Part shown: piece after piece, positions 11,927 to 25,808 of the stretch | How the letters are laid out: the number at the start of each line of letters is the position of its first letter | Numbering within the stretch: position 1 is the first letter of the stretch | Virus record (IMG/VR): IMGVR_UViG_3300050128_000007 | Direction: 5' to 3' (one strand) | Length of the DNA stretch: 62,769 nucleotides | Source of the DNA: a virus | Made by a program: the position numbers and the translations under genes | The notes under the pieces: generated by a model | Told to the model about the DNA's origin: nothing | Database searches by the model: none | Seen by the model: only the letters and a program-made list of their open reading frames with translations

Positions 11927-12018
11927 GTGACGCATGTGACGGGTTCTTTCGGTATCCCCGTTAGGCGCGCACGCGCGCGCGTGGCGCCGATAACGAAAAC
12001 ATCCGTCACATGCGTCAC
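11927..12018. repeat. 92-bp imperfect palindrome with 16-bp perfect outer arms GTGACGCATGTGACGG / CCGTCACATGCGTCAC
   Basis: Paired position by position. The centre is CACGCGCGCGCGTG. The region holds only implausible ORFs. Confidence 0.85.
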
Positions 12019-12282: not shown

Positions 12283-12343
12283 TATAGTTCATGCGCTATA
12301 ATCGGAATTATGCACTTGACAAACCGAAACCGCATGAACTATA
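12283..12343. promoter_or_regulatory. 13-bp perfect inverted repeat TATAGTTCATGCG / CGCATGAACTATA bracketing a promoter
   Basis: Arms at 12283..12295 and 12331..12343. The right arm overlaps the -10 element. Confidence 0.5.
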
Positions 12344-12345
12344 GT
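12316..12345 (+). promoter_or_regulatory. Sigma70-like promoter TTGACA-N18-TATAGT
   Basis: -35 at 12316..12321 and -10 at 12340..12345. The ATG at 12353 lies about 7 nt downstream, so the transcript may be leaderless. Confidence 0.45.
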
Positions 12346-12352
12346 TCCGGTC

Positions 12353-13300
12353 ATGGGAGCCGGTAACATGAACCTGTCAGAGATTTCAAGCCTCACCGAG
12401 GATCAAGCCCGCGAGTATTTCGAGAAAACCCGCTGGCCGAATGGTCGGGTTTGCCCCCATTGCGGATCGGTCGAAAGCACGAAGCTACGGGGCAAGGCTC
12501 ACCGCGTCGGGCTGTATAAGTGTTCGGGCTGCGATGGCCAGTTTACGGCGACCATCAACACGATTTTGGAGGATAGCCACCTCCCGATCCGAACGTGGCT
12601 GATGGCTTTCTCGATCCTGTGTTCGGCGAAAAAGGGCGTCAGTGCCCTCCAATTACAGCGCCAGCTTGGCCTAGGGAGCTACCGAAGCGCATGGCATTTG
12701 GCGCACCGGATTAGGCACGCGATGGCCCGCGAGCCATTGAAGGGCCTCTTAGGCGTCGGCGGCGGCACTGTCGAGGCGGACGAAACATGGGTCGGCGGCA
12801 AGCCCCGCAAGCGCGCTAGCAAGCGCGTTGCCGGTGCCAGCCGCGAACGTCCCGTTCCCACGAAAACCCGCGTGGTCGGGCTTGTGGAGCGCGGCGGTAG
12901 GGCGCGTGCGCACGTCATCCCCGATTTGACCGCGCCAACATTGAAGGCGGCGGTTCGGGCGCACGTCGATCCCAGCGCACGACTGATGACGGACGAAAAT
13001 CACGCCTATTTCGGGCTCGGCAGCGAGTTCGCCGGTGGGCATGAGGTCGTCAATCACAGCGCGTATGAGTACGCGCGCGGCGACGCGACGACCAACACGG
13101 TCGAAGGGTTTTTCGGTCTGTTCAAGCGCGGTGTGATGGGTAGTTTCCATCACATCAGCGAAAAGCACATGGACCGTTACTTGAACGAATTTTCGTTCCG
13201 ATGGGACTTGCGGAAAGTAACAGACGGTGAGCGCACCGTTGAAGCGATCAAAGCCGCAGAAGGCAAGCGGTTGATGTATCGCGTGCCAGTAGGGAACTAG
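12353..13300 (+). CDS. IS1595-family (ISXO2-like) DDE transposase homologue, copy 1
   Basis: N-terminal zinc ribbon CPHCG...CSGC. Catalytic-type motifs ADETWVGG, TDENHAY and NTVEGFFGLFKR. An alternative start is at 12368. Confidence 0.8.
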   Translation: MGAGNMNLSEISSLTEDQAREYFEKTRWPNGRVCPHCGSVESTKLRGKAHRVGLYKCSGCDGQFTATINTILEDSHLPIRTWLMAFSILCSAKKGVSALQLQRQLGLGSYRSAWHLAHRIRHAMAREPLKGLLGVGGGTVEADETWVGGKPRKRASKRVAGASRERPVPTKTRVVGLVERGGRARAHVIPDLTAPTLKAAVRAHVDPSARLMTDENHAYFGLGSEFAGGHEVVNHSAYEYARGDATTNTVEGFFGLFKRGVMGSFHHISEKHMDRYLNEFSFRWDLRKVTDGERTVEAIKAAEGKRLMYRVPVGN

Positions 13301-13344
13301 CGCCCGGATTCACAAGGCGTTTTCAATGTGATACGGGCGAGGGA

Positions 13345-13442
13345 TGCGGTAGACCGGATTCGAACCGATAAGGGGCTTGTCCGTTGAAGGGGCTCCCACC
13401 CGGTTCCAAACCGGGCGCGTCTGCCAATTTCGCCACTACCGC
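13345..13442 (-). tRNA. Class-II (long variable region) tRNA-like gene with anticodon loop UUUGGAA (UGG); isotype uncertain
   Basis: Perfect 7-bp acceptor stem GCGGUAG/CUACCGC. Leu-type D arm GCGAAAUUGGCAGACGC. Anticodon stem CCCGG/CCGGG. T arm AUCGG-UUCGAAU-CCGGU. Discriminator A. No encoded CCA. Confidence 0.7.
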
Positions 13443-13503
13443 GTGGTGACGCCGCTCGGTCGGTATTCGGTCCACAGCCGAACCCGTACCGAGCGGCGCC
13501 GGT

Positions 13504-13525
13504 TTTCCTAGGCGCGCCTAGGAAA
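13504..13525. repeat. Perfect 22-bp palindrome TTTCCTAGGCGCGCCTAGGAAA abutting the stop codon of gene 13526..13948
   Basis: Read directly. A second long hairpin (10-bp arms GCCGCTCGGT/ACCGAGCGGC) lies at 13451..13497. Confidence 0.8.
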
Positions 13526-13948
13526 TCATTCAGCGGCGCGCTGATGCTCTGCCGCTCTACTCTCGACCAGAAACCACTTTCCTTCCTTGTTTTTATACGC
13601 ACCGGCCTTACGGCCTCGGTCGAGCGCAAATCGAATACCGGAATAAGAAACCGACTTTTCCGCCGGCGTGACCGCCGATTCATGGATTTCAAGGGCACCA
13701 GCGCCTTTCATTCGACGCTCGGTAAGAACGCGCCTGATAAGACTATCAACGGCTCCATTCGGAGCTCGTCGAGCCGCCTGCGTCACCCGCACTCGCCGCA
13801 ACGGAGTTTTTTTGATAGTCTCTGCAACTGCATCGCCTTGGGCGGCTTGCATGATTCTAGTGATTGCGTCGCGGTCGCCGCGCGCGTATTCAGCAGCGAA
13901 AAGCCGCCTGATTTGTTGCAGAAGTTCCTCTAATTCGGTGTTGGCCAT
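13526..13948 (-). CDS. Putative DNA-binding regulator (140 aa, winged-helix-like C-terminus)
   Basis: The promoter region carries the palindrome at 13985..14003. The function is inferred only. Confidence 0.45.
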   Translation of the reverse strand: MANTELEELLQQIRRLFAAEYARGDRDAITRIMQAAQGDAVAETIKKTPLRRVRVTQAARRAPNGAVDSLIRRVLTERRMKGAGALEIHESAVTPAEKSVSYSGIRFALDRGRKAGAYKNKEGKWFLVESRAAEHQRAAE

Positions 13949-13984
13949 GGCACATTCTCAGAATCGATCTACCCGCAGTAGTAA

Positions 13985-14003
13985 TGCTAGTTCGAAACTA
14001 GCA
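13985..14003. promoter_or_regulatory. Operator-like palindrome TGCTAGTT-CGA-AACTAGCA
   Basis: 8-bp arms, 37 nt upstream of the ATG at 13948. Confidence 0.4.
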
Positions 14004-14251
14004 CAAGCCAAAAAAGGCAAACAACGACAGAGGCCTAACCAGCGCAAAACCGCCCTATCGTTGTACCCACTATCACTAGAAACCGCTCTAGGGGCGGCCC
14101 TCCAGACGGGTAAGCTACCCCCAAAGAGTTAATAAACTATTAAATCTGCGGCAGTCTTAATGAATTGGTATGCCATGCGCGCGACGTACTGCGGATGCTG
14201 GCGAAGCAAAAGCCGAAAGACAAACCAGAAAGTAACGACGATAGGGCAGCC

Positions 14252-14971
14252 TTATTCCGTTGATTTAAAATCGTTAGCTAGTCGCTCCAAAATAATCCAA
14301 TAGGTTGGACCACTGGCTTCGGCCCTTTCGTGTGTGACAAATTCCGCGCACGCCAGCCAATCCTTCAATACAGTTGTGCGATAGTAATTACGGTACATCT
14401 CCTTGTCGAGAATGCCGCTTTCTATGCCCAGCGCAATTAATTCATACTGGTTCAAGATTTTCCTAATTACCAAGGCCTCTTTTGTAGTTCCTCCGGCGTG
14501 CTTCTTTAAGCCATCCTTGGCCTCTCGCAATTCTATAAAGGCCTTGCGGCTGTCAACCCAATGCTCATTTGTTTGCATCGCAATAAGCATCTGTAGAGTT
14601 GCAGTGAGACGTTGAATTTCGCGATTAGAATCTATTTGTTTGTGAACGCCATCACGGGCGGTTTCAATTTGTTGCTGCACTCCACTACGTGCCGTCTCTA
14701 TTTGCTGCGTGAACCCATCCCTCGCATCAGTAATCTGTTTTTTCAGTGATCCAAGCTGCATCCATGCGAATACAGCGGTCACAATGATTGCGATGGAGGA
14801 AAGAATAATAAAGATCGCTTGAATAGTAGACAGCGCCGATGACTCGTCGCCGTAACAAACAGCGTCAAGCCCCAAAGTATGCACCGTATGGATGCATTCT
14901 GCCAAAGTCATGCCAACCTCACCCGGCCCCAAAAAGCTAATGGGCCGCTGCAAATTGTACAGACGGCCCAT
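14252..14971 (-). CDS. Membrane-anchored protein with QQIETAR(S/D)GV repeats and a helical C-terminal domain (239 aa), in an AT-rich island
   Basis: TM segment IFIILSSIAIIVTAVFAWM. The GC content is visibly lower than the genome. A 12-codon upstream ORF (15003..15041) has a perfect AAGGAGGT SD. Confidence 0.6.
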   Translation of the reverse strand: MGRLYNLQRPISFLGPGEVGMTLAECIHTVHTLGLDAVCYGDESSALSTIQAIFIILSSIAIIVTAVFAWMQLGSLKKQITDARDGFTQQIETARSGVQQQIETARDGVHKQIDSNREIQRLTATLQMLIAMQTNEHWVDSRKAFIELREAKDGLKKHAGGTTKEALVIRKILNQYELIALGIESGILDKEMYRNYYRTTVLKDWLACAEFVTHERAEASGPTYWIILERLANDFKSTE

Positions 14972-15180
14972 TACAACTTATTGGAAGGCGAATTGGAAGC
15001 TGTTAGCCGCCAACCCCTTCGAGGGTGAGAATCTGTGTCATCGCCTACCTCCTTTGTCTCTTGCCTGGACCGTTACATAGTCATGTTCATAGGTCTATGC
15101 GAGGGCGCACCAACCAAGCAAAAATCTAGCCAAAAATGGTTAATTTTCGGACAGATTGCCTGTGGGGACAACGCATATCC

Positions 15181-15426
15181 CTAAATATCGTTCGATGCCG
15201 ACGGAAACTCCCGTTTTGCCCCGTCGATGAGGATCGAATCACAAAACGAGGCGCGCCGCAAGGGCACCGCGTCGGCCGGAACCGGCATGAACTCCCAGCT
15301 GGCACGGTTTGTGAAGTGCATAATTCCGCCCTTGCTGTCAGCGACCAGCACGCCAGCCTTAATTAAATCGTATGCGCTCCAATTGCACATACGGTAGGCC
15401 ATCTCACGTAGGGCGGCTGGGCTCAT
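15181..15426 (-). CDS. Hypothetical protein (81 aa)
   Basis: The motif AGTCTGAAACC lies 30 nt upstream of the ORF. Confidence 0.55.
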   Translation of the reverse strand: MSPAALREMAYRMCNWSAYDLIKAGVLVADSKGGIMHFTNRASWEFMPVPADAVPLRRASFCDSILIDGAKREFPSASNDI

Positions 15427-15446
15427 TTATGGCCTCTTATCTAGTG

Positions 15447-15482
15447 GGTTTCAGACTTTGGGGGTATCAACCGGATAAGCAT
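15447..15482. promoter_or_regulatory. Intergenic copies of two recurring motifs: GGTTTCAGACT (15447..15457) and AACCGGATAAGCAT (15469..15482)
   Basis: The first motif is identical to 11662..11672. The second is identical to the core of the cassette inverted repeats at 21345..21358 (reverse) and 22009..22022. Confidence 0.5.
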
Positions 15483-15556
15483 TTCGAATCATGCGAGCGT
15501 AGGGGAAAATTTTACCACTCGCCAGTGGACGGCGCGGTATTGGCGAGGTAGGCTCT

Positions 15557-15937
15557 GTGGATAAGTCAGGAGTACGCACCATGATTTCGAGGAAGATGCG
15601 AGATGTTTTGATTGACCATCTGGACGGACGTGAGGTTCCTATAATTCATGCAACTGAGGCTTCCGGAATGGAAGCGCGCGACCTGGCATTGAAGCAGCAT
15701 ACCACGTCTGCACTCCTACACCGCAGATTGCTAAAGATCGACGGCAAGTTACCCCCACGCACAACGACAATCACTGAAAGCGGGCGCTCGGAACTCTGCC
15801 GCGCCCTCGCCGATTGGGCCGATGCGTTAGCCCGAGCCGATGATAGAGCGGATTGGTTCGTCACTGGAGCCACGGCAGCCCACAATCGCCCAGACGTGAC
15901 CGTGGATGCGTCTTTGGCTCCGAAGGTCCCGACATAG
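15557..15937 (+). CDS. Hypothetical protein (126 aa)
   Basis: An isolated plus-strand ORF with a GTG start. An alternative ATG lies a few codons downstream. Confidence 0.5.
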   Translation: MDKSGVRTMISRKMRDVLIDHLDGREVPIIHATEASGMEARDLALKQHTTSALLHRRLLKIDGKLPPRTTTITESGRSELCRALADWADALARADDRADWFVTGATAAHNRPDVTVDASLAPKVPT

Positions 15938-19499: not shown

Positions 19500-20297
19500 A
19501 TGGACATGGCATTAACTCCAGAACAGCACCGATTGCGAGAAGGCAAGCTCACTGCTAGCCGCGTGTCGGCTTTAATGGGCGGCGACGCGGCCAAAATATT
19601 AAACCTGTGGCGAGAAATGATCGGCGACCCAGCGTTCGTAGCCGAGGATTTGTCCGGCGTATGGCCAGTTAGGCTAGGCGAAGCCACTGAGGCGCTTAAT
19701 CTCGAATGGTACTCTCGGAAGCACGGCAAGATTTCCCGCATGGGCGAGGTCGTTACGGGCAATCCGTCGTGGATGGCAGCCACGCTCGACGCTTGGGACA
19801 TTGAGCACGCTTGCCCGGTCGAGGCGAAGAATGTCGGTGGCCGCGAACCGCTCGAAACGATCATCGCCCGCTACGCGCCACAAACGACCTGGCAGATGAT
19901 GATCACCGAATCAAAGCAATGCGCCCTGTCGGTCATCATGGGGGCGAACGAGCCTATAGTTGAATTTTTGCCATTCGACGCTGAGTACGCCGCCGAACTC
20001 ATGAAGCGCGCCAAGCAGTTTATGGCGTGCGTCGAATCACTTACTCCGCCGGTCGCACTTCCCGCCATTACCGCGCCAGTCATCGCCGCTAAAATCTATC
20101 CGATGGACGGCAACGCGGAATGGAAAGCACAAGCGGAACGATGGGTGCAATCCTATGGAGCGGCGCAGATAGCCAAAGAGGCGGAAACCAAATTGAAGGC
20201 GCTCGTTCCTGCGGACGCCGCCAAGGCTATCGGCCACGGAATCACAATCACACGCAACCGCGCCGGCAGTTTGGCGCTTCGAGAGGACAAGAAATGA
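19500..20297 (+). CDS. YqaJ-like (lambda Exo-type) recombination exonuclease
   Basis: [12 protein letters not shown] and VEAKNV motifs. ATG 19500 follows GAAGAGGA. It is paired with recT. Confidence 0.8.
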
Positions 20298-21343
20298 AAG
20301 CCCTAACCACGACCACGCAGCATGCCGTCTCGCGGTTCTCTCCAGATCAAGTCGACCTGATAAAACGGACGATTGCAAAAGGCGCTTCCGACGACGAGTT
20401 GCGCTTGTTCATGTACCAATGCGAGCGCACCGGCCTCGATCCACTTGCCCGGCAGATCTATGCCGTGAAGCGATGGGACGCGCAATCGTCGCGCGAGGTC
20501 ATGTCGATTCAGACATCGATCGACGGCTTTCGTTTAATTGCGGAGCGCAGCGGGAAATATGCGGGCCAAGTAGGTCCGTTCTGGTGCGGCCCTGATGGCG
20601 AATGGGTCGACGTATGGGTTAAGCCCGAGCCGCCCACGGCGGCGCGCGTTGGCATCCTTCGATCGGATTTCAAAGAGCCGGTATGGGGTGTCGCGCGGTT
20701 TGCGTCCTATGCGCAGAAAAAAAAGGACGGGTCGTTCACGCGCATGTGGCAGGCGATGGGCGACGTCATGATTTCTAAATGCAGCGAAGCCCTCGGGCTG
20801 CGCAAGGCATTCCCGCAAGAGCTATCAGGGCTGTACACAAACGACGAAATGGAGCAGGCGACGCAAGAGCCGCCACCAAAAGTCGCCGCAAACATTATCG
20901 AACAACAGAAAGAGCCGCTGCACAATCCCGAGACTGGCGAAATTGTACCATCAGCGCCGGATGCCATCGCGGTTCAAGACGACGATTGGATCAAGTTTGG
21001 CCAGTCACTCATTGCCGCGATCATAGCAGTGCCAGAGCGAGCGGACGAGTGGCTAACGACCAATGCAAATTCATGCGCGGCAATGGCCAAGGCTGCGCCG
21101 AAAGTCCACAAACGCATGATGGACGCGATCGACAAGCTGAGGCCCCCCACTCAGCCCATGCCGGCCGACAATCCGGAGGCATATCTAAAGTGGCTCAAGG
21201 CCAAATGCGCTGAGATTGCTTTGCCGTCAGAATTACACTCTTTCGCCAAAAGCCAAGCGGAGATTCTGAAATCTGCATTTCCACCCGATGCTGATCACGC
21301 GCGTCATTTCATCGAAATGCGGGCAAAAGAACTAGAAAAATGA
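20294..21343 (+). CDS. recT: RecT-family single-strand annealing protein
   Basis: [19 protein letters not shown] and [16 protein letters not shown] motifs. ATGA overlap with the exonuclease stop. Confidence 0.9.
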
Positions 21344-21386
21344 CATGCTTATCCGGTTGCCACACACAAACGCTGAGAGGCACTAA

Positions 21387-21995
21387 ATGTTGATCGCATT
21401 CAAAAATACTATCTGCACCAAGCCTTTCATTCTCAAACAGCTTCGCGCTCATGCCGCAGCGGATGAGATTGTTAAAGGTCGATATTGGGAAGGTGGAAAG
21501 GGATGCGCTGTCGGCTGCACCCTCCATTCTGGCTACCACGACAAATACGAGAGCCGCTTCGGTATTCCGCAAATGTTGGCGTGGCTCGAAGATTGTATTT
21601 TTGAAGGTTTGCCAAACGGTAAGGCTAAAGCGTGGCCGGTGAGATTTATGGATGCTGTGCAGCCCGGCGCCGATCTATCCCGCGTTGGTTGGAAATTTTT
21701 GCATTGGCTTCTGACGGACGAAGAAGTCAATCCCGGTATTACTGATCCTTTGTTTAAGGATGCAATCAGTCAATGCGCTGATGTTCTTGCACCACTTACG
21801 AAAGGTGAGGCGGTAGATAAGGGCGCGGCGAGGAGCGCGGAGAGCGCGGCGTGGAGCGCGGCGAGCGCGGCGTGGAGCGCGGCGAGGAGCGCGGCGATGA
21901 GCGCGGAGAGCGCGGCGTATGTCAAGATGTCCGACAAGCTGATCGCGCTTATCAAAGCCGCGCCGAAATCAAGACCGACAAAACACAACATCTAG
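21387..21995 (+). CDS. Cassette-borne protein with a CAVGC motif and Ala/Ser/Trp heptad-like repeats (202 aa)
   Basis: It has its own SD GAGAGG. It contains AARSAESAAWSAASAAWSAARSAAMSAESAAY. It is AT-richer than the flanks. Confidence 0.7.
   Translation: MLIAFKNTICTKPFILKQLRAHAAADEIVKGRYWEGGKGCAVGCTLHSGYHDKYESRFGIPQMLAWLEDCIFEGLPNGKAKAWPVRFMDAVQPGADLSRVGWKFLHWLLTDEEVNPGITDPLFKDAISQCADVLAPLTKGEAVDKGAARSAESAAWSAASAAWSAARSAAMSAESAAYVKMSDKLIALIKAAPKSRPTKHNI
21823..21917 (+). repeat. Tandem 9/12-nt coding repeat GCGCGG(CG)NGGA (nine units)
   Basis: Read directly. It is in frame inside gene 21387..21995. Confidence 0.85.
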
Positions 21996-22034
21996 AGCTG
22001 TGTGTCTAAACCGGATAAGCATAGAACTAGAAAA

Positions 22035-22463
22035 ATGATTGCCGTCGCTGCCATCAAGCGCAAGGCCAAGTTTGCGGGCGAAGTGGGCCTATACGGTGCC
22101 GATCAAGTAGCAGACGAGGAACTGAAGCGCCTAACAAACGATGAAATGGTATGGGCCGAGATAACCACGCCTAAAAACATTGATCTGCTTCGATACCTTT
22201 GGGCTATCGCTCAGAAGCTTGCGGACGGCGGTCTCTACCAAGACAAGGACGATGCGATGGAGGATCTGAAAATCCGCGCACGTTTCGCGCGCTTCGCTCA
22301 AGAGCGCGGGCGCATAGTCATTGTGCCAAGGTCATTAAGCAAGCAGCGTAAAGATGTTCTTAGCCGTCTTGCTGATCGGTTTGTATACATTATTTGCGCC
22401 GACCTCTTGCCGCAGATGAAACCGAGCGAGTTTCGCAAGGAAATTGAGGACATGGTTTCATGA
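22035..22463 (+). CDS. Hypothetical protein (142 aa from ATG 22035; the ORF is open from GTG 22002)
   Basis: ATG 22035 lies inside the right direct repeat. The left copy of that repeat holds the recT stop. Confidence 0.6.
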   Translation: MIAVAAIKRKAKFAGEVGLYGADQVADEELKRLTNDEMVWAEITTPKNIDLLRYLWAIAQKLADGGLYQDKDDAMEDLKIRARFARFAQERGRIVIVPRSLSKQRKDVLSRLADRFVYIICADLLPQMKPSEFRKEIEDMVS

Positions 22464-23525: not shown

Positions 23526-23587
23526 TCTATGCTGTACTGGATCATGATATTCGACATGGCGTGTGTCAAATTTAGGGAATTATATAC

Positions 23588-23616
23588 TTGACTCCATCGT
23601 GATTTTTGACTAGATT
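23588..23616 (+). promoter_or_regulatory. Sigma70-like promoter TTGACT-N17-TAGATT
   Basis: Read directly. It has the same -10 hexamer as the promoter at 31810..31838. Confidence 0.45.
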
Positions 23617-23641
23617 TCCGACAGAAATTGAGGGATTGGTC

Positions 23642-24568
23642 ATGTCGAAAAGCACTATTTCCACCTTTGAGTTGTTCAAGATGTTCCCAGACCAGGAAGC
23701 GGCGCGCAAGTATCTCGAAGCCCGGCTTTGGCCGGAAGGCCCGAAGTGCCCGTGCTGTGGCCTGGGTGAGCGCGTGACGGCCAGGAAGGGCAAGGAGGGC
23801 TTCTACCTATGCAACCAGTGCAAGGAAGACTTCACGGTTCGCACGGCCACGATTTTTGAGCGTTCGCACGTTCCGCTGCATAAATGGGTTTACGCGATGT
23901 ATTTGTTGGTCACGGCCCGCAAGGGCATTTCCAGCCTGCAACTCGCGAAGGAAATCGGTATCACCCAAAAGTCGGCTTGGTTTGTCCTGCATCGCCTGCG
24001 CGAGGCGTGTGGCGATGATCTGGCAACGCTCCAAGGCGTCATCGAAATTGACGAAACCTACGTGGGCGGAATCGAGAAGAACAAGCACGAAGGCAAAAAG
24101 CTCAAGGCTGGGCGTGGTTCGGTCGGCAAGAGCGCGGTTCTTGGAATGCGGGAACGCGCGACCGGTAAGACGCTGGCAATGCCGATTGAGAACGCGGACA
24201 TGGCGACAATCCACACGGCCATTCATCGCCGCGTGGTTGCGGGCTCTACGCTCCATACTGACGAAGCGTCCGCCTACAAGGGCTTGAACGGCTTGTTCTT
24301 CAAGCACGAGGCGATTAATCACGGCGCTGGCGAATATGTCCGCGATGGTGTCACGACAAACGGCATCGAAAGCGTGTTCGCCGTTCTGAAACGCGGCCTG
24401 ATCGGCGTCTACCACCACGCTAGCAAGAAGCACATTGGCCGTTACGTCGATGAGTTTGCCTTCCGTCTTAACGATGGGAACGTGAACCGCCACACGATGC
24501 AGCGCCTGGACAGCTTCGTCTCTGGTGTTGCTGGAAAACGGATCACTTACAAGGAGTTGACGCAATGA
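23642..24568 (+). CDS. IS1595-family (ISXO2-like) DDE transposase homologue, copy 2
   Basis: Zinc ribbon CPCCG...CNQC. Motifs IDETYVGG, TDEASAY and NGIESVFAVLKR. ATG 23642 follows GAGGGA. The stop overlaps the next gene (ATGA). Confidence 0.8.
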   Translation: MSKSTISTFELFKMFPDQEAARKYLEARLWPEGPKCPCCGLGERVTARKGKEGFYLCNQCKEDFTVRTATIFERSHVPLHKWVYAMYLLVTARKGISSLQLAKEIGITQKSAWFVLHRLREACGDDLATLQGVIEIDETYVGGIEKNKHEGKKLKAGRGSVGKSAVLGMRERATGKTLAMPIENADMATIHTAIHRRVVAGSTLHTDEASAYKGLNGLFFKHEAINHGAGEYVRDGVTTNGIESVFAVLKRGLIGVYHHASKKHIGRYVDEFAFRLNDGNVNRHTMQRLDSFVSGVAGKRITYKELTQ

Positions 24569-24831
24569 CGCGCCCGATGGAGCCTTGGCAGATGAAAATA
24601 CTTGAAGAAGCGCGCGGCGAATTGGGTGCGGCAATACGTCAATCAATCCCGAGCGACGACCAGATCATCATGGGTCGCGTGAAAGCGGCTTACGAGAAGG
24701 TTGGGCTGGTTTTGTCCGCCGGGCACACGCACGTCGCTGGGACAACGGTAGGGCTGAAAAGCGGGTGCTGCGCTGTATGTGGCGAGGACTTTCGCCACGA
24801 AAATCACCAGCACCGTACTTTTACGGGCTAG
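24565..24831 (+). CDS. Hypothetical protein (88 aa)
   Basis: Translationally coupled to transposase copy 2. Confidence 0.6.
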   Translation: MTRPMEPWQMKILEEARGELGAAIRQSIPSDDQIIMGRVKAAYEKVGLVLSAGHTHVAGTTVGLKSGCCAVCGEDFRHENHQHRTFTG

Positions 24832-24840
24832 GGCGGCACC

Positions 24841-25023
24841 ATGAGCAGGCGCGATAGAACGCTAGGACGGTCAACTCGCTGCATTGATGGGCGCCTTATG
24901 CGCCACGATCCGCAGCCGGATGACCCATCGCTTGAGACTGATATCGGGGAATGTCCGGAGTGTGATGGTCACGGCTGCGAGGCTGTGGCGCGCGATAACG
25001 GCCAATTCGGAGTAGGCGCGTGA
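24841..25023 (+). CDS. Hypothetical protein (60 aa)
   Basis: ORF with an ATG start. Confidence 0.5.
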   Translation: MSRRDRTLGRSTRCIDGRLMRHDPQPDDPSLETDIGECPECDGHGCEAVARDNGQFGVGA

Positions 25024-25241
25024 AGTATGCAGACATGCAGGATCAATGCGAGGGTGCCATGATGGATGTTCTTGACGCCGTATGGGCGGAAATTAGCGAA
25101 TTGAAGTGCAAGGCTGGCGATGAAAAGGCGCTGGTCGGGGACGAATTCGACGAAGATATTTATGACATGGCGATCATCGATGCGCTGGGCGTTATCGAGC
25201 GCCTGGGTGGTATGGACCCTAGCGCGCGGAAAAAATCATGA
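25020..25241 (+). CDS. Hypothetical acidic protein (73 aa)
   Basis: 4-nt overlap with the upstream gene. Confidence 0.55.
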   Translation: MKYADMQDQCEGAMMDVLDAVWAEISELKCKAGDEKALVGDEFDEDIYDMAIIDALGVIERLGGMDPSARKKS

Positions 25242-25462
25242 TCACGCAATGCGAAAATACGGTTAGCGACCTTGGTGCCTATTTTCTTCAAGGCCGCCGC
25301 GTTCCTGTCAGATGCGCTCGTGATGCTGCATGGGTGGTTTCGGTTAATCCGCCCACCAAAGACAGCGACGGCAATGTTCGCCTCTGTGATTCATGCAATG
25401 CGCTCGACTACAGAACTTTTCCGCGTGAGAAAATTGCCTCCAAAGCGGGATGCGTTCCATGA
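25238..25462 (+). CDS. Hypothetical protein (74 aa)
   Basis: 4-nt overlap with the upstream gene. Confidence 0.55.
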   Translation: MITQCENTVSDLGAYFLQGRRVPVRCARDAAWVVSVNPPTKDSDGNVRLCDSCNALDYRTFPREKIASKAGCVP

Positions 25463-25662
25463 ATACCCCAGAGCGGTCTGGTACGGCTCGCGAGGCCCCC
25501 AGCACCAGTAGGGACGGTTCGACCGTAGGGGCTCAGCCCGCCGCTCGCTTATCTCACCTGGACGCTATCGCGGACGTGGTGCTCGCCTACCGCCCCAAGG
25601 CGAAGACGAAGCCCGCGCGAAAACGTCAGAGGGCGAGGCGGAAACGCGAAAAGGCGCTATGA
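25450..25662 (+). CDS. Hypothetical basic protein (70 aa)
   Basis: ORF in the operon with a Lys/Arg-rich tail. Confidence 0.5.
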   Translation: MRSMNTPERSGTAREAPSTSRDGSTVGAQPAARLSHLDAIADVVLAYRPKAKTKPARKRQRARRKREKAL

Positions 25663-25808
25663 AGCGGAAATGGACTCATGTATATAATTCCCCAAATTTA
25701 TCGCGCTTTGGGTTATTGGCGCGGCAATCGGTTTTTGGGGTATCGTTCATTGTTTTTCTGCCCCCTCAAACAAGTATTTTAAACATTTTGCAGTTGGGTT
25801 GGGATTAA
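25659..25808 (+). CDS. Small hydrophobic protein (49 aa; below the ORF-track cutoff)
   Basis: ATGA overlap with the upstream stop. The segment is AT-rich. Confidence 0.35.
   Translation: MKRKWTHVYNSPNLSRFGLLARQSVFGVSFIVFLPPQTSILNILQLGWD

Follow-up and report, generated by a model that had tools for sequence, protein, structure and literature searches.

Mobile insertion cassettes (MICs) are a concept of ISfinder, exemplified by MIC231, which derives from IS231 of Bacillus cereus, and they are presumed to be moved in trans by the transposase of the parental element. In phages the exchange of single accessory genes, the so-called morons, is usually ascribed to illegitimate or homologous recombination. 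What defines the IS1595 family of insertion sequences (IS) is an 8-bp duplication together with a zinc ribbon and a DDE domain (PMC8101967), and phages have been reported to tolerate insertion sequences poorly (Leclercq et al. 2012, PMC3429520). Here we describe a single-gene insert in the IMG/VR virus record IMGVR_UViG_3300050128_000007, a stretch of 62,769 nucleotides that was analysed as a whole and is referred to as the window. The insert is located between recT and a gene for a NinB-like protein. We conclude, with a probability of roughly 0.87, that it is a non-autonomous derivative of the IS1595 family, which carries one passenger gene and was inserted at the overlap between recT and the NinB-like gene.

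The window contains genes for a portal protein, the large terminase subunit and structural proteins and was thereby recognised as a phage genome. The region is identical in another contig of 62,603 bp. The phage has a genome of roughly 63 kb and its host is probably found among the Hyphomicrobiales; it is present in the samples SRR35930681, SRR35930654, SRR35931008 and JGI 3300050136 and 3300050129. The main features are listed with their positions in Table 1. The stop codon TGA of recT (21341-21343) lies within the left copy of a 16-bp direct repeat, AGAACTAGAAAAATGA, and the two copies at the borders of the insert are exact, as claimed in an earlier note that was made from the sequence without database searches. 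The same note had named a recurrence of the 16-mer at many gene junctions as an observation that would speak against a mobile cassette; in the whole window the 16-mer occurs exactly twice. Inside the direct repeats, two arms of 24 nt (21345-21368 and 21999-22022) form an inverted repeat with 21 of 24 positions complementary, so that the inverted repeats themselves were correctly recognised but their earlier count of 20 of 23 is replaced. By comparison with the cassette family described below one terminal base was added at each end, a C at the left, which is present in the window copy (21344), and a G at the right.

The insert contains one gene with its own ribosome-binding site, as had been predicted: the leader holds a Shine-Dalgarno (SD)-like GAGAGG (21375-21380), located 6 nt upstream of the ATG of the only open reading frame (ORF), and the stop codon TAG (21993-21995) coincides with the conserved TAG position of the family. 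With its 42-nt leader and this stop codon the window copy matches the family plan exactly. The insert had also been described as richer in AT than its flanks. This was found for positions 21300-21800, with a GC content of 0.45-0.53 compared to 0.53-0.60 in the flanks, but the lower GC is confined to the 5' two-thirds of the insert, and the 3' part, a GC-rich tandem repeat, reaches 0.60-0.65. Neither a transposase nor a recombinase gene was detected within 21344-22022, in agreement with the first reading of the sequence, and the window copy is therefore non-autonomous. A scan of the cassette for promoters and terminators gave no sigma-70-like promoter on its coding strand, nor any intrinsic terminator. 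The cargo would therefore probably depend on transcripts that read through from the surrounding operon, with translation from the cassette's own SD, which is the simplest reading of its expression. In the GenBank phage collection the cassette DNA had no match, and a single weak match, to recT, was obtained for the region.

A search pattern with 20 specified bases spanning the inverted repeat (ATGCTTATCCGGTTNNNACACAC) gave matches in IMG/VR, where at least 119 stretches contained it, and in bacterial genomes or metagenome-assembled genomes (MAGs), with 27 stretches that came mostly from Hyphomicrobiales, Xanthobacteraceae, Rhodoplanes and Bradyrhizobium. The check proposed earlier, to look for the inverted repeats around other cargo genes, was thus positive. 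The cores were nearly always found as convergent pairs at a distance of 0.2-0.9 kb, enclosing one ORF whose orientation was fixed relative to the two distinguishable ends. The non-redundant set comprised 82 elements with usable flanks, or 104 with the genome loci included. From 101 cassettes we obtained the consensus of the left end, 5' ATGCTTATCCGGTTGcCACACACAAACGCTGAGacCTACTAG directly followed by ATG (42 nt conserved), and that of the right end, 3' …TAGGGCTGTGTGTCTAAACCGGATAAGCAT. The ATG was located at position 43, and the TAG at its fixed position in the right end, in 64 of the 101 cassettes each.

With the element boundaries set to C-ATGC…GCAT-G, an exact 8-bp flanking direct repeat was detected for 76 of the 104 unique elements. 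These 76 duplications were all different in sequence and consisted of 70% AT, versus 41% for the loci overall. When, as a control, the right flank was displaced by 50 nt, repeats of at least 7 bp were found in 0 of 81 cases. Two cassettes, L003 and L021, were 98.3% identical over 362 nt while their duplications differed and their flanks were without similarity; further pairs with homologous cargo in unrelated flanks were 80-88% identical from end to end. The proposal of a mobile cargo cassette without its own recombinase is borne out by the occurrence of the same termini around about 100 other cargos and by the target-site duplications. As a separate observation, the cassettes at L079 8500-9490, L114 2070-2550 and L005 11700-12230 were located inside abutted or inverted copies of the other type of inverted repeat (GGGAATTATATAC). 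Subtraction of the cassette from L079 restored …GTATATAATTCCCC-TT-GGGAATTATATAC…, a junction of a right end with a left end like that of an IS circle or a tandem dimer.

The same 14-nt termini also bounded longer elements, of 1.9-2.25 kb, in L010/L050, L023, L027 and L036 (four or five elements), and those in L023, L027 and L036 were flanked by clean 8-bp duplications. They encode a transposase of 349-357 aa with the IS1595 zinc ribbon and DDE domain (PF12760, PF12762, NF033547), which in L010, L023 and L036 scored 182 bits for NF033547 against a cut-off of 75. The transposase gene adjoins the right end and 2-3 small passenger ORFs are located upstream of it. Full-length elements and cassettes reside together on the viral contigs L010, L023, L027 and L036. 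The transposase of the full-length elements and that of ISAcr1 share 63% identity. ISAcr1 is a named, IS1595-like element from plasmids of Acidiphilium; in the one copy examined, its inverted repeat reads CTTGCCTATCCGGTTGAC…CCTACTAGAT… and its 8-bp duplication GAATCAGC. The left end of the cassettes aligns with ISAcr1 in the terminal TGCyTATCCGGTTG as well as in the subterminal CCTACTAGAT. From this likeness and the definition of the IS1595 family we concluded that the cassettes are transposase-less, cargo-bearing derivatives of an ISAcr1-like lineage. The ISAcr1-like elements would belong to the ISSod11-type end group 'nnnGcnTATC', an assignment that, like that to the ISNwi1 type, is provisional. 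Judged by the features of an IS1595 insertion, the window copy has terminal inverted repeats of the family type and an orthologous empty site (L143 and L144, see below). It has a 16-bp instead of an 8-bp duplication and encodes no transposase; the 8-bp duplication is found in the cassette family and the transposase in the elements with the same termini in L010, L023 and L036.

These results also bear on the idea that the insert is an integron-like or other cassette of site-specific recombination, whose repeats would be the substrate of a tyrosine or serine recombinase. The form seen here, one ORF without a promoter between imperfect but conserved repeats, would fit such a unit, and the cargo of the family is as highly diverse as that of integron cassettes. 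However, the repeat stands at both ends and in inverted orientation rather than as one attC, the many unrelated AT-rich sites with 8-bp duplications are a hallmark of DDE transposition and not of site-specific recombination, the enzyme inside the full-length elements is an IS1595 DDE transposase, and no integrase adjoined the cassettes examined. The window element thus departs from the integron cassette with its single attC, insertion at attI by IntI and lack of a target duplication, and we consider an integron-like origin very improbable.

Related phages with an empty site, in which recT and the following gene overlap by ATGA, had been predicted, and were found in the viral contigs L143 and L144. 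Their NinB-like protein is 63-64% identical to the 142-aa protein of the window, and the gene is directly preceded by that of a RecT, which aligns over its full length including the C-terminal …RAxELxK (45% identity between the window RecT and the L143 orthologue over the full length). In both contigs the recT stop codon and the next ATG overlap as ATGA within a single homologue of the 16-mer, which in L143 reads AGAGCTAGGGAAATGA. For the lineage of the window itself we predicted …GCGGGCAAAAGAACTAGAAAAATGATTGCCGTC… as the empty junction and …GGATAAGCATGAAAAATGATTGCC… as the junction with an 8-bp duplication. In a search of the same lineage for an unoccupied site or an 8-bp variant, the exact junction 25-mer was without match in the JGI metagenome contigs. 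Contigs with an identical RecT or NinB all carried the cassette or broke inside the left inverted repeat. Two assemblies with an identical recT, L264 and L265, stop inside this repeat (…ccacacacaaacg), as would be expected if the repeat was multi-copy in those samples. The IMG/VR RecT relatives L120-L142 gave no information on the junction, because only the N-terminal RecT domain was conserved. In an ENA contig of ERZ1426849 an identical 142-aa NinB-like protein is preceded by a 182-aa DUF7666 ORF with the same 39-nt gap, and the genes further upstream differ from those of the window, so that another cassette may occupy the site there. In an ENA contig of ERZ1426850 the ORF before the identical NinB gene is a variant of the cargo with 184 aa.

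It may be asked whether neither the inverted repeats nor the 16-mer belong to mobile ends and both are instead common signals of regulation or translation, such as operators, RNase III stems or terminators, found repeatedly at gene junctions of this phage group. Start and stop codons and an SD-like sequence do lie in the ends, base pairing between the arms would be possible in the mRNA, and the solitary copy of the core in the window is located in a divergent intergenic region. Signals of this kind would leave unexplained the 8-bp duplications of different sequence at 76 sites, the orthologous empty sites, identical cassettes in unrelated flanks, and termini that are shared with transposase-encoding elements and are similar to the inverted repeats of ISAcr1. 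In addition, the 16-mer does not recur beyond its two copies and no terminator-like site is present in the cassette. We therefore give hardly any credence to a purely regulatory nature of the repeats.

Several observations weigh against an IS1595-type transposition of the insert. The 16-bp duplication of the window copy is the only such case among the 82 elements; the repeat noted earlier is real, but with a family norm of 8 bp its length is an outlier and not a signature. The right terminal base of the window copy is A and not G, and the right end of L148, a relative with 98.6% identity, reads GCAA. No duplication of any length was found for 18 of the 82 cassettes. A transposase of the matching type is absent from the window: both IS1595 transposases encoded there share 26-31% identity with this type, and the inverted repeats of both resident elements differ from those of the cassette; the cassette is therefore probably dependent on the transposase of a co-infecting phage or of the host. 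The close relatives for which DNA is available all carry the cassette at the same site and thus give no evidence of recent movement. The best IMG/VR loci with cargo homologues were flanked by inverted repeats in 0 of 80 cases, and the homologues in genome or metagenome contexts in 0 of 3. Finally, transposition is here deduced from its traces in the sequence.

The 16-bp duplication could stem from one aberrant integration with a 16-nt stagger. The present junctions might instead go back to homologous recombination inside the cassette, if related phages had each received an insertion independently, one at the 8-bp target AGAACTAG and the other at the adjacent AAAAATGA, with an offset of 8 bp. 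After such an exchange the intact recT stop would be retained at the left and the native 16 nt before the downstream gene at the right, which gives exactly the observed junctions, with a duplication of exactly 2 x 8 bp where the family norm is 8 bp. The cassette ends are conserved enough for recombination, these phages encode RecT and a YqaJ-type exonuclease, and the 18 cassettes without duplication together with the inverted flanks of the L114 cassette suggest recombination between copies. This scenario, however, needs two independent insertions at adjacent positions and leaves the missing terminal G unaccounted for, and no relative with either of the single 8-bp insertions at the junction was found. 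We regard it as rather unlikely, and transposition of an IS1595-derived unit as the better account of the locus.

In the mechanism that we propose, an IS1595-type transposase with zinc ribbon and DDE domain would be supplied in trans and would bind the CATGCTTATCCGGTT... termini. It may come from a sister element of full length that resides in the host or in a phage infecting the same cell. The unit would be moved by 8-bp staggered cuts into AT-rich, often intergenic sites, and in the window it would have entered the AT-rich ATGA stop/start overlap of recT and the NinB-like gene with duplication of the target DNA. The conserved 42-nt left end contributes the SD-like sequence and usually the ATG, and the right end the stop codon.

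The 82 cargo proteins were grouped by BLAST into 65 clusters, and the cassette-borne ORFs were complete with 60-290 aa. Among the 77 proteins scanned we recognised Dam, C5 and MT-A70 DNA methyltransferases, Mom and three NADAR proteins, furthermore PAPS-reductase-like proteins, an RlaP nucleotidyltransferase, a DHH phosphoesterase and TnpB; most of the 77 were without annotation. The bias of the cargo to DNA modification suggests counter-defence functions, which would presumably be of benefit to the phage. A 1146-bp cassette of the same family with TnpB cargo (OrfB_IS605 / Cas12f-like TNB) is located at L057 3704-4849, which places the gene of an RNA-guided nuclease inside IS1595-type ends. 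A trend towards co-orientation of the cassettes with neighbouring genes was weak and noisy, came from crude ORF calls and was not used.

For the 202-aa cargo of the window, the homology search proposed earlier returned 2536 sequence homologues but no informative match in Pfam, NCBIfam, PHROGs or the PDB sequence profile. According to the alignment, the first 145 or so residues form a highly conserved domain in which certain Cys, His and Trp residues are invariant (GKGCAVGC…); SAAxSAA repeats in variable number and a C-terminal helix follow. Its AlphaFold2 model is all-alpha with a mean pLDDT (predicted local distance difference test) of 84. Foldseek detected no significant neighbour in the PDB, and the sole structural match was an uncharacterised phage protein. 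The Ala/Ser/Trp repeats that had been pointed out before correspond to the tandem array of Table 1. The copy number of the SAAxSAA-coding repeat differs in the 98.6%-identical relative L148 (240-450), and across the homologues it varies widely (proteins of 170-325 aa); the repeat is a rapidly evolving region. Unflanked homologues were found in an Aestuariivirga prophage, a Methylomonas prophage and 80 IMG/VR contigs, often near recombination genes. As the homologues are not flanked by inverted repeats, the cargo appears to be an ordinary gene of the phage early region that was captured by the cassette in this lineage, and the anti-defence role suggested for it in the earlier note is conjectural.

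Table 1. Positions of the insert, its neighbouring genes and the related elements in the window.
Feature	Position	Strand	Remarks
recT, 349 aa, upstream gene	20294..21343	+	Pfam RecT 3e-31; gene call in identical contigs
Left copy of the 16-bp direct repeat AGAACTAGAAAAATGA (duplicated target)	21328..21343	+	
Left terminal inverted repeat (C + ATGCTTATCCGGTTGCCACACACA) and conserved leader	21344..21386	+	
Cargo ORF, 202 aa	21387..21995	+	Only ORF in the insert; about 90% of the 678-bp element
Tandem repeat in the cargo gene	21823..21918	+	Periods of 12/21/33 nt
Right terminal inverted repeat region (..AGCTGTGTGTCTAAACCGGATAAGCAT)	21996..22022	+	
Right copy of the 16-bp direct repeat	22023..22038	+	Its ATG (22035) begins the downstream gene
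Downstream gene, 142 aa	22035..22463	+	Weak NinB/Orf-like match, phrog_319 E=1e-3
Candidate IS1595 element 2	12304..15327	+	Inverted repeats GGAATTATGCACTT[G/C]AC, 16/17
Third core copy, start of second cassette	15328..15482	-	Left inverted repeat, leader, ORF start
Complete IS1595 element 1, 2118 bp	23575..25692	+	Inverted repeats GGGAATTATATAC[T/A]TGA[C/G]TCCAT

Two cassettes and two full elements bring the IS1595-derived share of the 62.8-kb genome to about 10%. Element 1 is flanked by the 8-bp duplication CAAATTTA (23567-23574 and 25693-25700), and the homology to L148 (98.6%) ends exactly at its left edge, at 23566. Besides five small passenger ORFs it contains a transposase gene (23606-24568), whose stop codon forms an ATGA overlap with the ORF that follows. 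Transposases of this type, 72-80% identical, are present in L005, L011, L080 and L085. Located 1.6 kb downstream of the cassette, the transposase of element 1 was considered as a cognate or domesticated helper and rejected: it belongs to a complete IS of its own with its own duplication, it is 26% identical to the transposase of the elements with the cassette's termini, and, since the inverted repeats of element 1 are unrelated to those of the cassette, it is probably not the cognate enzyme. Two of the passenger ORFs of element 1, orf88 (24565-24831) and orf60 (24841-25023), are small and Cys-rich and are homologous to passenger ORFs in the full-length elements of the ATGCTTATC type (L010 4414-6535, L050 262-2383). 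These passengers are common to both element types despite unrelated inverted repeats and transposases with 26% identity, and they may be accessory proteins of transposition rather than cargo.

Element 2 encodes a transposase of 315 aa (12353-13300). No target duplication was found in its flanks, and its left boundary is uncertain, with the homology to L168 beginning about 94 nt to the left of the inverted repeat. Just upstream of this second transposase region a 44-nt near-palindrome with 80% complementarity and a 4-nt spacer was observed (11927-12018). The right end of element 2 abuts and interrupts a truncated cassette, which bears the third copy of the cassette core. With this copy (15469-15482) the window contains 3 matches of the 14-nt core, versus 0.32 expected. 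The earlier note had correctly located it as a solitary copy, but it is the left end of this second cassette, which reads from 15482 to 15328 through left end, leader (…AAAGTCTGAAACCCACTAGATAAGAGGCCATAAATG) and ATG (15426). Over its first 44-61 nt it shares 80-88% identity with many cassettes of the family in their left inverted repeat and leader. Element 2 meets this second cassette 100 nt into its ORF, and no recognisable right end of the cassette was found; it seems to have been truncated by element 2, and an adjacent deletion may have been involved. In the divergent intergenic region beside this cassette end an exact DnaA-box-like sequence, TGTGGATAA, is located at about 15553-15563.

Beyond the single locus, an active and specialised IS1595-derived shuttle may exist in phages of Hyphomicrobiales and of related soil and freshwater bacteria. 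It would consist of hundreds of transposase-less units with common ends that supply ribosome-binding site, start and stop; each unit would carry one accessory gene, in many cases a gene for DNA modification or another candidate for counter-defence, and a few full-length sisters would bring the units in trans from one phage genome to another. We give this joint claim a little less than even odds. If it is true, accessory and anti-defence genes of phages could be recognised by these ends, much as integron cargo is by attC, and the shuttle would be a clear exception to the poor tolerance of insertion sequences by phages (PMC3429520). A genome that is about 10% IS1595-derived already indicates that some phage lineages tolerate a heavy IS load, in contrast to that report. 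The cassettes offer a defined, transposon-based vehicle for accessory genes: the ends can be recognised, the targets are duplicated, empty sites exist, and a small sample yielded about 65 cargo families without relation to each other. Their ends (about 42 nt at the left and 30 nt at the right) could be used as a sequence handle to mine metagenomes for phage accessory genes, including methyltransferases, Mom, NADAR proteins and many uncharacterised candidate counter-defence proteins.

IS1595 elements and passenger-bearing non-autonomous IS derivatives are already known; for the phage setting our literature searches found no description of IS1595-derived cassettes, nor a paper naming ISAcr1. With ISAcr1 the cassettes have in common the terminal xxTGCyTATCCGGTTG, the subterminal CCTACTAGAT and the 8-bp duplication. 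ISAcr1, however, measures about 1.07 kb and contains the transposase gene only, whereas the window element lacks the transposase and carries an unrelated 202-aa gene, and the phage-borne full-length elements have 2-3 passenger ORFs upstream of the transposase. Miniature inverted-repeat transposable elements (MITEs) are likewise non-autonomous, bounded by inverted repeats, target-duplicating and IS-derived. They are typically non-coding and shorter than about 300-500 bp, and the window element, with 678 bp of which 90% are ORF, is therefore neither small nor non-coding in the sense of a MITE.

Other small mobile units of phages have been recognised by comparison of syntenic genomes, and like the cassettes they add or shuffle single genes. 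The mycobacteriophage elements MPME1/2, ascribed to Sampson et al. 2009, reportedly contain one conserved ORF and short inverted repeats of another type; they differ from the cassettes by this conserved ORF in place of variable cargo. The PeSL cassettes of T4-type phages, ascribed to Arbiol et al. 2010, are said to be moved by recombination at promoter stem-loops, and unlike the cassettes described here they are without transposon ends or target duplications. The closest agreement is seen with the MICs, as the window copy has IS-type inverted repeats around a passenger gene, no transposase and a flanking duplication of the target. The parent is here an IS1595 element instead of IS4/IS231 as for MIC231, and the setting is that of phage genomes, in which the cassettes form a very large radiation of single-gene cargo with translation signals conserved in the ends.

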